Part shown: in pieces, positions 50,180 to 55,713 of the stretch | How the letters are laid out: the number at the start of each line of letters is the position of its first letter | Position numbering within the stretch: the first letter of the stretch is position 1 | Source: an uncultured Nitrososphaerota archaeon | GTDB lineage: Archaea; Thermoproteota; Nitrososphaeria; Nitrososphaerales; Gagatemarchaeaceae | Direction: 5' to 3' | Length of the DNA: 64,000 bases | Assembly (NCBI GenBank): GCA_963703285.1 | Contig: OY969807.1 | Location: forward strand, 736,001-800,000 | The notes under the pieces: generated by a model | Told to the model about the DNA's origin: nothing | Database searches by the model: none | What the model saw: the letters and a program-made list of their open reading frames with translations, nothing else | Made by a program: the position numbers and the translations under genes

Positions 50180-50264
50180 GCGGGGGTCGCCCAGCCTGGC
50201 CAACGGCGCGGGGCTTAGGACCCCGTCCCTTAGGGGTTCGTGGGTTCGAATCCCACCCCCCGCA
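50180..50264 (+). tRNA. tRNA-Leu(TAG)
   Basis: GCGGGGG/CCCCCGC acceptor stem, CGGGG-CTTAGGA-CCCCG anticodon arm, long variable arm, GTGGG-TTCGAAT-CCCAC; no encoded CCA. Confidence 0.96.
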
Positions 50265-50310
50265 CTCTCTCACTGGCGAAATGGGCCAAGGACGCCGAAA
50301 GACAGCCGCG

Positions 50311-53300
50311 CTAGGACGACGCCGACGGGGAGGCCGTTCTCCTTCTCCTCCTCGAGAGGATAAAGACAAGCAGAGCCAAAATCAAGACTACCACGACGAA
50401 CGCTATGCCCAGTAACATCGGGACAACCTTCGGAGGCGTGGAGATCGATTGGCCCAGAACCGACATCAGAGACAGCGCGACAGAGACGACTATCGAACCA
50501 AGCGCTTGGTTGACGCCGGAGGAGAGGTTCACGGCCGCCGAGAGGGTGGCGAAGAAGGACCCGCCCAGTCCCAGAATCGGAGATAGTGTTCCGGCAATCG
50601 TGACCAGTCGGCTTGTAACTACTCCTATCGACTGGCCGAGCGCGGACATCAGGGAGAGTGATAGGTTGTCCACTATCGAGCCCAGCGCCTGATTTACGCT
50701 CGGGGAGAGACTAACTGCGGCGGATAGCGTGGCAAAGAATGACTTCACTGCTATTGTTCCTATAGATTGGCTGAGGCTCGAGGAAAGCGATATCGACGCG
50801 CTCAGCACGGCCACGAATCCGTTTATGGCGCCTGAAAGAGTGGAAACGAGGGTAGTGCTCAGAGGCTGAATTATCACTGCCAAGTCTTGGTTCACCGAAG
50901 CCGCGAGGGTCATTGCCGATGAAGCCGAGCTGGACAGGTCCTGATTGAAGGTGAACGCGAGGGAAAGCAGCGCGGAAAGAGAGTTGCCCACGTCTTGGTC
51001 TAGGGAAGCGGCGAGCGAGACTCCTTGATTGAGCGCATTGGACAAGGCTTGGTCGACTGCCGATGTCAAGGACAATGACGCAGAGGCGACTATCGAGCTC
51101 AGCGCCTGATCGACGCCGGAAGACAGGCTCACGGTAGCAGACAGCGTGGCGAAGAGGGACGCGCCAACCTGTAGGACCGGGGATAGTGATACTGCCACAC
51201 TCGCGACTATTCCTCCCAAGTCCTGATTGAGAGAGGCGCCCAGGGACATCGCGGAAGAAACTAGAATGCCTAGGTCTTGATCGAGTGAGGCGGCAAGGGA
51301 GAGGGAGGGGGTCAGTGTGTTGGACAGGTCTTGGTTCAAGCTTGAGAGCAGCGATTCGGAATAGGACAGTATTGCGGAGAGAGATGCGCCAACTTGTAGG
51401 ACCGAAGATAGCGTTACTGACATATTCGCAACCATTCCCCCGATGTCCTGGCCCAGAGCACTTGACAACGCCACGGCTATTGAATTGGCAATTCCAGACA
51501 AATCCTGGCCGAGAGAAGGGAGCAAGGTGATGCCCGAAACGGGATTCACGCCTAGAGACTGATTGATTGTCGTTCCGAGAGATATCGCGGCAGATAACAG
51601 TTCAGAGAAGGCGGCCTGGATGGAAAGACTCGCTGAAAGGGCGATGTTCATCGCCTCTGCTATTCCGGTAATGGACTGATTCACCGCGACGGCCAGGACA
51701 GTCGAAGCCGAATCGGTTATCGCAGCTAGTCCCTCATTGACGAAGAGAGTGAGCGAGGCGGTGGCGGATGCGAATATGCCTACGGCGGGGTTGAGCGTGG
51801 AAAGAAGGGATACAGAACTCGACAAAGCCGCCGACAATGCGGCTTGCGCTGTCAATAGGATGCTCAGCCCGATGCTGGAACTACTCGTTACCGTGAGATC
51901 CTGCCCTACTGAGGATGCCAAAGATACCGTGGCGGACACCACGGCTGATAGAGCGCCTTGGACTGCAAGGCTCGCAGAAAGGAGGATGCTAGTGACCGGA
52001 GTGATCCCCGCCAATCCCTGATTGATTGACGGGGTCAGAGACATGGCAGCCGTGACGACTGTCGAGAGCTCGGCCTGTATTGCCAATGCCAATGCAAGAG
52101 CGATCGTGGAAGATTGCGTTACTCCGGATATGGCCTGATCAATCGTGGGAGTTATCGAGATGGCAGCAGAAAGAACCGATGAAAGCGCCGACTGCACTGC
52201 CAGCGTGGGTGTCAGGGAAATAGCAGAATTAGTGGCTAACGCCAGGGCCTGATTGACAGATGATGTGAGCGACACTGCGGCCGATATCAGTGCTGGGAAG
52301 GCTCCTTGAATAGCAAGGCTCGCGGACAATCCCATGCCAACCGACGGCGTTATTCCGAGAGCCTGGTTGATCGTCGCCGCGAGGGTCAAGGCCGACGAAA
52401 GGGCCGCCGAGAGCGCGGCCTGTATCGCAAGCGTGGGAATCAATCCGATGCTAGAACTCGCGCTTACAGTCAAACCTTGATTCATGGATGAGGCCAGCGA
52501 TATCGAGGCAGAGACGAAGGCAGATAGAGCACCCTGGATGCTGAGGCTCGCTGAGAGCACCATGCTGATTGCGGCGGTTATTCCGGCGATGGCCTGATCG
52601 ACCGCGGGGGAGAGCGCCATCGTCGCGGACTGTGTCAGACCATTCGCCTGACCGACCGTCGCAGAAAGGCCCATGGATGCAACGTCTGTTATTCCAGCGA
52701 CTGCCTGACTGACTGTAGGAGTTATGGACATGGCCGCTGAAGGAACCGACGATAGCGCAGCCTGTATTGCCAATGTTGGAATAAGATTGATTGAAGCCGA
52801 CACGGAATTACTTATGGCCTGACCGATTCCCGATATCAGAGAAAGCGTTGGGCTCAGTCTGTTGGATATGGCTTGCTTCAGAGTCCCGGTGAGTGATATG
52901 GCGTGAGAGAGAGCAGAGGTGCAACTCCCATTCAGACAGCTGAATGAGGTCGATGGCATCACGTTGCTCGGGGGGTAGGCCCTAATCCTGAACCAGTAGG
53001 TTGTTTGGGTGTCTGAGGCAGCGAAGCTCACTTGTAGGAGACCAGGGTAGTTCGTGAGAGAAACCGTTCCGGAAGCCGTTACCGGGCTAGCGTAGTTCTG
53101 GTATTCGGTGGCCGCGGTGGAGCTCACGGCAAGCGTAACAACCTGCAGGGTCGTGGCAGGCGGGTTGGGGGTAAAGGCTGTGCATCCTGAGGCTATGCAC
53201 AAGCCGTTGATGCCGTCGGAGCCCTCCGGGGGGTACACCCATTGAGCCGCGCCGCTCGTGACCGTATATGAAGAGGATGTTGTCTGGAGGTTGCTGAAGG

Positions 53301-54023
53301 ATGCGCCTATCCAGGCTCCCACAGTGTTGCTGACCTGATAGGCGTCGACGATCAGCGGACCAGTGTATTGACTGTTGAGTGAGAACGAATAGCCTGGAAA
53401 CGGGTTAGAGTCGACGGTAAGACCGTTGTTGACCGAGTAGGTCCCTGCAGCTCCCACGGTGTCCCAAGCGCTGCTGATGCTGGTGCCCGCGAAGTTGTCG
53501 TAGAAGGTAAAGACATTCTTTCCATCGTCATACTGACCATAGGTGGCCGAGAGCTGAGGAGCCTCGCCCCACACGCTCGATCCTGAGTTTCCCATGTTGT
53601 TCGTGCTCGTGCTCAGGAACCCCAGGTAGATGGTGAGCGTGCCGCCGGTGGCTGCAATGATGTCCGAGCCGAGGTTGACCCACACCGTGGAAGATGTGGC
53701 CGTGTTGGAGCACGACAACTCGCACCATGCGTTAAGAATCGTGTTTGAACTGTCGTAGAACTCCACGTTCGTTACGCCCGAATTGAGATACGAAGCATAT
53801 TCATTCCAGTCAACCGTAAGTTGTTGCTGAAAATTGGTCGGGGTGGCAGCCGATTGGCTGTTCGTCAGCGTGACTGTAACGTACGCCACCACACCAGACG
53901 GTTGGGCATGAGCGTCCCGTATCTCGGGGCCCAGAGCCAGAAAGGCAGAGCCTATGAGGAGGAACAGGACTGTGAGTGTCTTGATTACAGTCTTCTGTTC
54001 GCGCGGGGTAGGAAAAAAGTCAT
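50311..54023 (-). CDS. Large secreted surface protein: signal peptide, DUF2341-like domain, about 43 repeats, C-terminal TM anchor
   Basis: Signal ending AHA-QP; ATPTNFQQ, STVWVNL, GEAPQLSATYGQYDDGKNVFTFYDNF; TM followed by RRRRR; likely ATG 54023 needs a -1 correction before about 53987. Confidence 0.8.
50440..52920 (-). repeat. Protein-level tandem repeat, about 43 units of 18-21 aa
   Basis: Units such as ALSAALSSALTLAATINQ / ALGITPSVGMGLSASLAIQ, mostly ending in Gln; near-duplicate blocks FFATLSAAVxLSxxVNQALGSIV. Confidence 0.85.
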
Positions 54024-54025
54024 GC

Positions 54026-54775
54026 TCAGGTCCTCGATATTGACCACGTGATTGTGAGTGTGTTCCCGCTGACCAACGAGTCCGGGCCGAACGTGCCCTC
54101 AGCATAAGGGTAGACGTGGGTTCCACTGCCGAGTTCGGTCATGAGACAGGCAACCTGAACGGAGCTATCTGTTTCTGCAGCGGTGAACGTGTGCGCTACT
54201 GTCGTCGTGACTGTGCTTCCCGCCGCTCCTGCAGTCACTGTCCCTGCGACATCGGTCAGTCCTCCAGACTGGATGAGGTTGGTCGAATCGCATGGGCCTG
54301 CGGCAAACGTGTCGGTCGCGGCGGGTGCGGTGGCACTCTCAGAGAGGCCTACGATCGTCGCATGGTCCCCAGAAGTGATCGTTATCGTTCCACACGTTCC
54401 GAATATGACGCACTGCTCGAAGTCGTGCCCGTCGTTGGTGATTACGGTGGGGTCGAGAGTATACGTGATTCCATGGCAGAAGGCCCAGCAACTAGCGGTG
54501 AACCCCTCCTGGAGGAGCTTGACGTTGACGAAAGCCTGTTCTTGGTGCGTGATTACAACCTGGAAGTTGATACAGGATCCGGTGACTACGTCAAAGGTGC
54601 CCGGAGTCCCGTTGGGCATCGTGCAGGTGGGTGAGGGATGGGATACCGAACTTGAGTAGAAGTACGGTACCGCAACCACGAACCCCATGGCAAGTACGAC
54701 TATTACGAAGGCGGAAATCAGATAATTTTTGCGGTTAGTGCCCCGTTTCACCGGCGCGCTCTCAGCGCTTGACAT
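54026..54775 (-). CDS. N-terminally anchored protein resembling phage tail-collar/fibre small subunits
   Basis: TM, then VITNDG..VGLSESATAPAATDT..HTFTA..TFGPDSLVSGNTLTITWSIS; TTAAATA box 27 nt upstream. Confidence 0.65.
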   Translation of the reverse strand: MSSAESAPVKRGTNRKNYLISAFVIVVLAMGFVVAVPYFYSSSVSHPSPTCTMPNGTPGTFDVVTGSCINFQVVITHQEQAFVNVKLLQEGFTASCWAFCHGITYTLDPTVITNDGHDFEQCVIFGTCGTITITSGDHATIVGLSESATAPAATDTFAAGPCDSTNLIQSGGLTDVAGTVTAGAAGSTVTTTVAHTFTAAETDSSVQVACLMTELGSGTHVYPYAEGTFGPDSLVSGNTLTITWSISRT

Positions 54776-55239
54776 ACCGAGTAGGGCATACTCAAAGTTA
54801 CTATTTAAGCCCTGTGAGAGTTTGAGGGTGTTTATGGACGATATTTCTACTCATTGTCTTGACTTTGGAGTCCTGAACTGCTCAAAGGGCAACTTGAGGG
54901 CATGGCACTGTTTCAGGTGCGAAACGGGACACAAAAGGGTATCAATCTGCGATATGCGCCTCGTTCAAAGCTACTCTCGGGCTCCGGTCTCGTTTCACCG
55001 AGATTGTGCCTGATTCATCGCTTTTCATTACTCGATACCCCCCGCCTAGAATCCTGCCCTAGTCGGGGGAAGCACTGGTAGGCAGGTGACGCTGAACTGC
55101 CCCGGGCGTCCGATGAGGGCCCAGGATGCACCCTGATTCTCGTGAGGGTATCTTAGCGCAGCCGTAGAATTGAGGAGCGCCTAACCCCAAAGAGCGGTGG
55201 CACAGAAACTTATTACCAGAAAGTCCCCGGATTCGTGCC

Positions 55240-55713
55240 ATGGTTTGGTACACCGTCCACTACAGTTTCAGCCAGAGATTCAAGTTCCCCCTCCAGGAAG
55301 CCTGGCGTTGGTCCACCGACTACGACGAGAACGACATTGCGCTGACCGGGCAGAATGGGAAACGAGAGATAGAGAGACTGAATCAAGATACCCTAGTCCT
55401 CACCGACTCGTACTACACCGACGGGCGGACCACAACTAAGCGAAGGCTGATCAGGCTCTTCCCTGAGCTGCACATGCTGACCAATACCAGGCTGTCTAGT
55501 GCCAACAGGCACTCCCAGTTCATCTACCAGTTCGTGAGCGAGGGAAGGAACAGGTCGAGGCTGGACTTCACCGGCGCCCAGGTCAACAGATCCAGGAACA
55601 AGCCTGCGGCGTCAAAGGTGGCCGCGCTCGCCGGAGAGTACGAGAGATTCGATTCCCGAATCTGGGTCAACCTTGCTGCGGCGATGGAGAAGGACCTCGC
55701 CGGTCGTGCGTGA
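55240..55713 (+). CDS. Hypothetical SRPBCC-like protein
   Basis: PLQEAWRWSTDY, SRLDF, terminal helix WVNLAAAMEKDL. Confidence 0.6.
   Translation: MVWYTVHYSFSQRFKFPLQEAWRWSTDYDENDIALTGQNGKREIERLNQDTLVLTDSYYTDGRTTTKRRLIRLFPELHMLTNTRLSSANRHSQFIYQFVSEGRNRSRLDFTGAQVNRSRNKPAASKVAALAGEYERFDSRIWVNLAAAMEKDLAGRA

Follow-up and report, generated by a model that had tools for sequence, protein, structure and literature searches.

The subject of this analysis is a pair of genes in the genome of an uncultured Nitrososphaerota archaeon (order Nitrososphaerales, family Gagatemarchaeaceae), considered here as a candidate surface-fibre system. The analysed stretch, hereafter called the window, comprises 64,000 nucleotides (nt) of contig OY969807.1 (positions 736,001 to 800,000; assembly GCA_963703285.1), and coordinates refer to the window unless stated otherwise. 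The two genes follow one another on the minus strand in head-to-tail order and are bounded by a tRNA-Leu gene (50180–50265) and a small open reading frame (ORF) at 55240. Gene 1 encodes a small protein with a β-rich outer domain, and gene 2 a giant repeat protein, whose reading frame is broken directly after its start codon.

The gene pair and its two products

Gene 1 (54026–54775, minus strand) encodes a product of 249 amino acids (aa). In an AlphaFold model calculated with 63 homologues (mean predicted local distance difference test score 86.6), a helix at residues 16–39 is followed by a poorly defined linker and a β-rich ectodomain. The latter is composed of a cysteine-containing subdomain (residues ~60–110) and a β domain (residues ~111–249) resembling Gp80 and phrog_5417. 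Among 21 closer homologues Cys96, Cys100 and Cys210 are invariant and Cys122 and Cys162 nearly so, and the motifs AEGTFGPD and SGNTLTITW are retained. At 90% identity the family forms 59 clusters, and at 50% identity it has 73 representatives. An N-terminal hydrophobic segment is present in 104 of 123 family proteins; in the window protein this helix may be either a membrane anchor or a long signal peptide. Gene-1-like paralogues frequently occur as pairs in tandem or divergent orientation (L021, L047 of genome G433, L053–L055 and L058), an arrangement that recalls phage A1002 with its two different bead proteins. A TATA-like box, TTAAATAG (54801–54808, minus strand), can be read directly from the sequence 26 nt upstream of the gene 1 ATG. 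It suggests a promoter, and judging from the distance between box and ATG the gene 1 mRNA is presumably leaderless.

The gene 2 product (long frame at 50311–54126, minus strand, in the list of ORFs) has a length of ~1,235 aa and consists of a signal peptide, a DUF2341 head, 41 units of ~19 aa, a transmembrane (TM) helix and the sequence RRRRR. The head (52819–53904, minus strand) contains the DUF2341 domain (53458–53769) and a region homologous to the DUF2341/Laminin_G_3 heads of archaeal surface proteins. DUF2341 (PF10102) was detected at residues 74–177 of the product with 28.9 bits, above the cut-off of 23.4, and the head also matches phrog_7548 (E 1e-17). As a query, the head retrieved 295 homologues at E ≤ 1e-3 from Nitrososphaerales, DPANN and Marsarchaeota records, many of them annotated as PF10102 or PF13385, whereas only 5 database proteins within the length range searched were found with the repeat array. 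Giant archaeal surface proteins of the DUF2341/Laminin_G_3 type thus share the head with gene 2, but the 19-aa array is absent from the top homologues inspected (P0124, P0125, P0126 and P0128). A sequence search of the PDB returned nothing for the head and nothing for the uncharged repeats.

The repeat array (50449–52818, minus strand; ORF residues 437–1226), which we propose to be a rope or a stalk, is made up of 41 units delimited by Gln. Most units comprise 18–21 aa, and 18 of them exactly 19 aa. The consensus has Ser at positions 4, 8, 12 and 15, Leu at 13 and Gln at 19, and the overall composition is 20% Ser, 16% Ala and 15% Leu with ~3% charged residues. Autocorrelation of the protein sequence peaks at lags 18 and 76, and repeat families in the DNA are spaced by 114 and 228 nt. 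Tandem Repeats Finder, however, reported no tandem array in this DNA; the units are therefore old and diverged. Downstream of the array the sequence encodes a TM helix followed by RRRRR (50338–50427, minus strand), a putative stop-transfer anchor. The gene 2 C-terminus does not match the NCBIfam models of sortase-type sorting signals (PGF-CTERM, Heimdall-CTERM); Heimdall-CTERM stays far below threshold (E 0.35, 11.4 bits against a cut-off of 24), and no motif preceding the TM helix is shared among the gene 2 homologues.

Much of this layout had been recognised in a first-pass annotation of the same DNA, which described a two-gene operon with a TATA box and a 2-nt gap. The genes, the TATA-like box and the spacing were correctly described; the ATG after the gap, however, is out of frame with the long ORF, which can be reached only by a −1 shift. 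Its outline of gene 2 (signal peptide, DUF2341 head, repeats of 18–21 aa, TM helix and RRRRR) also stands, except that 41 rather than about 43 units are present and that the signal peptide arises only after the frame shift. The description of gene 1 as a protein with a TM segment or signal and a cysteine-containing β-rich domain agrees with the helix at residues 16–39, the β-rich model and the invariant cysteines. Export signals on both products, also claimed there, are borne out as export or membrane-anchor signals by the sequence, by the gene 1 model and by the joined gene 2 signal peptide.

The frame break at the start of gene 2

The start codon of gene 2 (54021–54023, minus strand) lies 2 nt after the TGA of gene 1, and the frame that it sets (frame 0) begins with ATG ACT TTT TTC CTA. 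Without a shift, translation in this frame would give only MTFFLPRANRRL before a stop codon is reached (53985–54023, minus strand; 12 codons). In the −1 frame the long ORF stays open over 3,705 nt; from the gene 1 stop codon up to the hydrophobic core of its signal peptide it contains no ATG, GTG or TTG. The two frames can be joined only at the sequence T_TTT_TTC (54012–54018, minus strand), either by a −1 shift or by one extra T. This heptamer has the canonical slippery form X_XXY_YYZ, is in phase with the ATG (ACT TTT TTC, codons 3–4) and is accompanied by an early stop in frame 0 and a long ORF in frame −1, and we propose it as a −1 recoding site. Only joining of the frames gives rise to MTFF/PTPREQKTVIKTLTVLFLLIGSAFLALGPEIRDAHA (53905–54023, minus strand; the slash marks the frame junction), which looks like a normal Sec signal peptide, presumably cleaved after AHA.

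The sequence TTTTTTC occurs once in the window, compared with 1.68 occurrences expected on both strands. Among the 61 sites in the genome at which six T are followed by C, the complete layout was found in the canonical phase only at gene 2, and one site was found in each of two control phases. Since each control phase also gives one site, the count of such sites alone is not discriminating.

Loci of gene 1 homologues were fetched from genomes and metagenomes, and every junction between gene 1 and gene 2 was read. The layout is common to four diverged lineages, represented by the window and eight contigs, with gene 1 identities of 54–86% between lineages. The window junction, ATG ACT TTT TTC, has six T (T6), and the same run length is found in contigs L020 and L028 (ATG GCG AAG AAG CTC CTA GGT TTT TTC). 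Seven T (T7) are present in L005 from genome G011 (TTG AAG ACG AAG TTC GTC GCT GTT TTT TTC) and, identically in five assemblies, in the L014 group (L014, L015, L016, L017 and L022; ATG ACT CGC GTT TTT TTC). The length of the T run is constant within a lineage (T7 in all five contigs of the L014 group, T6 in both L020 and L028). In all four lineages the heptamer is in phase with the start codon, frame 0 stops 5–13 codons after the heptamer and the giant ORF lies in frame −1; that is, both the site and its phase are conserved in diverged relatives.

Joining of the frames leads to MKTKFVAVFF/LLLLATTLLVVPQPASA in L005, to MTRVFF/RVSLVGPRPLTQAKSLIIAGLLAGSLLLVYQPVLA in the L014 group and to MAKKLLGFF/LLALLLVAAVPLPAAFA in L020 and L028. 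As predicted from these sequences, only the shifted reading yields a normal signal peptide in the four lineages, and canonical in-frame starts would truncate the signal peptide in all of them. For L005 and L020 an in-frame start further upstream is impossible, because the stop codon of gene 1 itself closes the giant frame. In the database entries P0245 and P0247 the annotated start falls within the signal peptide or behind it. All loci have AGGAC shortly before the gene 2 start (window 54026–54037), where it is set by the conserved C-terminus of gene 1 (..S/A-R-T, stop); this sequence may at the same time act as a Shine-Dalgarno-like element in coupled translation. In L028 (90–1595) the gene 2 homologue ends after 502 aa, where the repeats should start, which may reflect a broken copy or an assembly problem.

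A frame break of this kind could also arise without any programming, namely from a phase-variable homopolymer tract that is mostly in its OFF state, from a decaying gene or, for the window alone, from an assembly error in the homopolymer. Contingency loci classically carry a short homopolymer run close to the 5′ end of a surface-protein gene. The T6/T7 run of gene 2 occupies this position and, as in contingency surface genes, decides whether the frame is open. Short-read contigs from four DNA runs match the window at 100% identity, but none of them bridges 54015–54022 and could confirm T6 independently. Contigs from one of these runs (X1), identical to the window, stop to the left and right of the T run (54014 and 54023), which could result from low depth or from length heterogeneity. 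In the genome that contains the window (G000), an open frame of ≥600 nt gives way to another at nine homopolymer runs of at least six bases (10 frame-pair combinations). These swaps may be assembly indels, chance events in a GC-rich genome or further recoding sites; both they and the ends of the X1 contigs are compatible with a break that is not programmed. A conserved RNA structure following the heptamer, which might stimulate a shift, was likewise not found: the fold z-scores of −2.0, +1.3, −0.05 and −2.15 belong to dissimilar structures, and no Rfam element was detected.

The conservation of the junction speaks against an unprogrammed break. In all four lineages the giant frame is displaced by one base, always in the same direction, and in each of them the run ends in the same codon phase, that of X_XXY_YYZ. 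The chance of this phase in all four is ~1/81, or ~1/27 if L005 and the L014 group are counted once. Contingency genes differ in this respect from gene 2, where every allele seen has this one-base displacement and the tract stays in the phase of a slippery heptamer. No "on" allele is present among the window and the eight contigs, the tract length is identical in five assemblies of one lineage, and the downstream ORFs of 1,200–1,500 codons are intact. In addition, runs of six or seven T are short for a contingency tract, and lineages with in-frame starts lack the T run. We therefore regard an accidental or phase-variable break as quite unlikely.

Several loci do not follow the recoding pattern and weigh against it. 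L011 and L012 have an in-frame GTG and no T run, the giant gene of G433 has an in-frame TTG/GTG start, and P0244 is recorded, as a protein entry only, with an ordinary N-terminal signal peptide. L010, L026 and L009, close relatives of the window pair, are without a recognisable start: L010 and L026 carry a T5 run and CTG in place of the window ATG, L009 has ATC at the expected start position, and in all three no canonical start precedes the signal peptide. On balance, programmed recoding is the probable cause of the frame break in gene 2, with a small share of the probability left for causes other than those named above. As the codon phase is preserved, a −1 slip of the ribosome is more likely than slippage during transcription, and, as far as can be read from the sequences, it is gene 2 and not gene 1 that needs recoding.

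The closest known case is fucA1, the α-L-fucosidase gene of Saccharolobus solfataricus, which is likewise an archaeal cellular gene with its 0 and −1 frames split at an X_XXY_YYZ heptamer. This heptamer is A_AAA_AAU in fucA1, compared with U_UUU_UUC in gene 2. The gene 2 site is a predicted one and differs from fucA1 by its position at codons 3–10, inside a signal peptide and straight after a coupled start, and by its retention in four lineages. In a 2021 review, fucA1 of S. solfataricus is given as the sole case of −1 programmed frameshifting reported in Archaea (PMC8211752), and no later case in an archaeal cellular gene was found among the papers listed by a literature search.

Viral relatives of gene 1 and its constant partner

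The window gene 1 protein has no Pfam match at E ≤ 1, no NCBIfam match and no meaningful match in a sequence search of the PDB, and it reaches only E 0.13 against phrog_5417. Since the protein itself remains below the Pfam and PHROG thresholds for Gp80 families, its link to Gp80 runs through family members and through the fold. Among the 63 aligned family members, 25 match phrog_5417 (best E 6.2e-22), five match phrog_4176, annotated as tail fiber protein (over profile positions 10–135 of 309), and five match PF23140, the Pfam family Gp80 of the podophage GP4 fiber I protein (best E 1.9e-7). One member found gp18 of Burkholderia phage BcepGomr by tblastn, a 143-aa protein encoded in the tail module two genes after the tape measure gene. 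Alignment of the gene 1 family with this protein by hhalign gave a probability of 84% (E 7.6e-6), with the C-terminal GDTxxITW motif inside the aligned region.

The structural comparison points in the same direction. With Foldseek, the gene 1 model gave 30 matches at E ≤ 1e-3 in BFVD, among them tail fibre proteins as well as proteins from haloarchaeal tailed viruses and from lipothrixviruses; entries named "Tail collar fiber protein" follow at ranks 43–50 (E 4e-3 to 9e-3). In the PDB no match reached E ≤ 1e-3, the best being chain 9h4p_BD of HFTV1 (E 2.4e-3). The model does share its fold with the solved GP4 gp80 (8jou_a), of which entry 8JOU contains 10 chains. Viral relatives of the core family were found neither by tblastn in 50,697 phage records nor in IMG/VR. 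Judging from the profiles and the model, a relationship of the gene 1 family to viral tail-fibre proteins is supported, and membership of the Pfam tail-collar family is not, as neither the window protein nor any of the 63 members matches Pfam Collar. Of the first-pass proposal that gene 1 resembles viral tail-collar or fibre proteins, the fibre part is hence upheld by phrog_5417, phrog_4176, PF23140 and the fold, and the collar part has to be dropped. The search by fold and PHROG profile suggested there did lead to viral tail proteins, as described above.

Chain-like fibres have been described in podophages GP4, VP1 and A1002, and the following details are taken from a 2026 paper on A1002 (PMC13730344). 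The beads of these fibres are dimers of a small protein of 140–171 aa with the gp80 fold, which are attached in tandem to a rope. In GP4 five dimers sit on a separately encoded rope protein, and in A1002 eleven dimers on a fibre-dock domain with a length of ~300 Å; each dimer forms an augmented β-sheet with the rope. The archaeal pair resembles these fibres in two respects, as the gene 1 domain belongs, by profile and fold, to the Gp80 superfamily and as the gene for the small subunit adjoins the gene for a long partner, like in GP4-type fibres. Tandem docking of dimers by β-sheet augmentation is solved for the phage fibres and would have to be assumed for the archaeal pair; it is the mechanism that the first-pass annotation had proposed from the letters alone. 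In contrast to the phage fibres, the archaeal pair is cellular, with housekeeping neighbours and no virion module. Its putative bead differs from Gp80 by the N-terminal hydrophobic helix and the extra Cys subdomain, and its putative rope of ~1,235 aa differs from the phage rope by a signal peptide, a head, 41 repeats and a membrane anchor.

In GP4 itself, gp79 (L075, 27948–28925, minus strand; 325 aa) adjoins gp80 on the same strand and contains units of ~20 aa with the pattern GxGxI[DE]LxGxG and an autocorrelation peak at lag 20. From its sequence gp79 is a candidate for the rope protein; it was not found in the PDB by sequence, and gp77, which is present in 8JOU, looks globular and small. 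When GP4 gp75–gp83 were searched with hidden Markov models (HMMs) of the archaeal repeats and of gene 1, no significant match emerged; gp80 against the gene 1 family scored highest (E 0.046 among nine proteins). The C-terminal tail of BcepGomr gp17, which by eye could have been a short rope, was rejected, as hhalign against the archaeal repeats returned a probability of 0.8%.

The partnership with a long repeat protein extends beyond the window. Seventeen contigs extend at least 500 nt beyond a core gene 1 homologue on its downstream side. In 13 of them, corresponding to 6 of 10 distinct junction types, an ORF for a large secreted protein begins within a few dozen nt. The remaining four contigs contain nothing (L018), a gene 1 paralogue (L021), a 154-aa ORF (L023) or a 303-aa Cys-rich ORF (G433); in G433 the giant repeat protein is encoded beside a gene 1 paralogue, 3 kilobases (kb) from the Cys-rich ORF. 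The same kind of repeats is present in every partner whose contig reaches far enough (window, L005, L012, L016, L022 and L026), over array lengths of ~500 to ~790 aa. The heads vary between DUF2341, NHL-containing and at least two unannotated types, often with additional immunoglobulin-like or Ser/Thr-rich parts.

Shorter gene-1-like proteins (~190–215 aa, homologous in the C-domain) occur in other families of the order; at E ≤ 1e-10 they were detected in 16 of the 401 genomes sampled from the class. At eight of nine such distant loci the gene-1-like ORF is directly followed by a protein of 859 to >2,572 aa, and arrays of ~20-aa units are visible in five of the seven distant partners inspected (L006, L007, L054, L056 and L059), with the pattern [ST][LIV][ST][DE]xxxRxxxLxRxLTE. 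An HMM of the window 19-mers found no domain in these charged repeats; the kinship of the two repeat types therefore rests on their period and on hhalign (probability 96.3%, E 1.5e-9), whose score may be inflated by composition and periodicity. In L059 (genome G205), residues ~341–500 of the partner consist of eight perfect tandem copies of the 20-aa unit PVLASDTLSRLLSTPRSVLE. Such perfect copies indicate a recent expansion, and the repeat number is therefore evolving.

These comparisons support the view that the repeats are the constant partner of gene 1 across the order and that the heads are swapped. Thus the expectation that a small protein of this kind stands next to a long repeat protein elsewhere holds at 13 of 17 contigs and eight of nine distant loci, with only the repeats conserved in the partner, and the variation in repeat number that the first-pass annotation proposed to survey does exist among the homologues.

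Fibre model, genomic setting and implications

In our preferred interpretation, to which we assign a probability of roughly 45%, the cassette is an accessory two-gene surface-fibre system of a soil archaeon and a cellular counterpart of the bead-and-rope tail fibres of GP4, VP1 and A1002. Gene 1 comes first in the transcript and can be read without recoding; its product is a small protein with an N-terminal hydrophobic helix and an outer domain homologous to the Gp80-type bead. Gene 2 can be read only after a −1 slip on U_UUU_UUC at codons 3–4, or after addition of one U by the RNA polymerase; unshifted ribosomes stop after 12 codons. The variable head, here DUF2341/LamG-like, could serve as an adhesive tip. 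The repeat array would serve as a track for the docking of gene 1 domains, presumably in dimeric form with one site per one or two repeats, so that the repeat number would set the length of the fibre, and recoding would keep the giant protein scarce relative to the small one. By analogy, a bead-on-rope mechanism is plausible because the phage fibres of GP4, VP1 and A1002 provide a solved precedent. That every part applies at once, i.e. that soil Nitrososphaerota build a fibre of Gp80 dimers on a 41-unit track with a swappable head and a low rope-to-bead ratio set by a conserved −1 frameshift in the signal peptide, appears rather doubtful. A complex prediction of the gene 1 ectodomain (residues 60–249) with eight repeats (152 aa) gave an interaction prediction score from aligned errors (ipSAE) of 0.00 in two runs performed without controls, and is not evidence either way.

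Some properties of both proteins do not fit easily with a decorated rope and could be explained by a stalked adhesin. In such an adhesin the array would be an autonomous α-helical solenoid that holds the head off the cell, and the gene 1 product would stay in the membrane as a base, adaptor or assembly factor, meeting the repeats only as they leave the Sec channel or acting as a lectin, and would not coat the array. With the profile of the charged repeats as query, designed helical repeat proteins were hit (5h7c, E 2.6e-8). The Ser residues at positions 4, 8, 12 and 15 together with Gln at 19 form a stripe of 3.8 residues per turn that fits a helix, and the hydrophobic moment of the array has a peak at 100 degrees, so that the array may be an autonomous helical stalk instead of an extended docking track. 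This moment is, however, equally high at 170–180 degrees. As to gene 1, a hydrophobic N-terminal segment is present in most of the family (104 of 123), and the window helix (residues 16–39) is long for a signal peptide. If the helix is uncleaved, the domain would be tethered to the membrane and could not decorate the distal part of a rope. The repeats are also far from the C-terminal anchor in L005, L016 and G433, with ~600 aa between repeats and TM helix in L005 and L016. On the other hand, it is the repeats alone, and neither heads nor anchors, that are conserved together with gene 1 across lineages, and those homologues of the gene 1 domain whose structures are solved sit as beads on ropes. 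We consider the stalked adhesin a possible but somewhat unlikely explanation.

The genomic setting bears on the question whether the cassette is cellular at all. Its neighbours in the 64-kb window are housekeeping genes, and no integrase, att repeat or virion gene was found at the cassette, in agreement with the first-pass statement that no capsid, terminase or integrase genes are present. The only duplicate of the tRNA end resembling an att site, a 16-nt match at 81% identity, was taken as chance. PADLOC detected nothing in the window and Rfam only the tRNA. A fragment of a proviral tail module might be suspected from the homology of gene 1 to phage tail-module proteins, the phrog_7548 match of the gene 2 head, the adjacent tRNA gene, the lower G+C content of the cassette (0.565–0.575, compared with ~0.60–0.63 in the flanks and 60.6% in the genome, a single contig of 2.25 Mb) and its patchy distribution. 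Both products, however, carry export or membrane-anchor signals, the flanks are housekeeping, the tRNA is not repeated in an att-like manner, no relative was found in IMG/VR or by tblastn in the 50,697 phage records, and elsewhere the pair stands in other chromosomal contexts, again with no virion genes. A proviral origin of this kind is thus highly improbable.

The cassette rather occupies a variable slot, one edge of which is formed by the tRNA-Leu gene (50180–50265, plus strand), which adjoins the 3′ end of gene 2. The genes flanking the slot are syntenic across the genus, and the interval between tRNA-Leu and a 157-aa ORF varies (window 50266–55239 compared with L072, L073 and L074). In the window genome, G000, the slot measures 4,975 bp and holds the two-gene cassette. 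It measures 3,158 bp in G014, with two other secreted proteins (G+C 0.54), 1,553 bp in G001, with an unrelated 399-aa ORF, and 67 bp in G003, where it is empty. Since content and length of the slot vary within the genus and the G+C content of the cassette is below that of its flanks, the cassette is exchangeable cargo. The core module is rare, being found in 2 of 23 genomes of the genus and in 3 of 97 genomes of the family, many of which are incomplete. The metagenome runs that hold the locus are from soil, and among RNA sequencing runs none containing the locus was found.

The analysis links a recently solved phage fibre architecture, small dimers on a rope, to a cellular gene pair that is widespread in Nitrososphaerales, a globally important soil group with poorly known surface structures, and gives a concrete, testable hypothesis for a giant repeat protein that has been without annotation. 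Because gene callers miss the true start, as for P0245 and P0247, which were called without signal peptides, the family is systematically mis-annotated. The junction is in addition a naturally conserved candidate for −1 recoding in Archaea, where such recoding is almost unknown, and this may prove more important than the fibre itself. With a heptamer at codons 3–10 and no obvious stimulator the site is minimal and, if real, would be a useful model. If the proposal is true, the cassette would encode the first cellular chain-like fibre, with a length of tens of nanometres, and gene 2 would be only the second cellular gene of Archaea known to use a −1 programmed frameshift.

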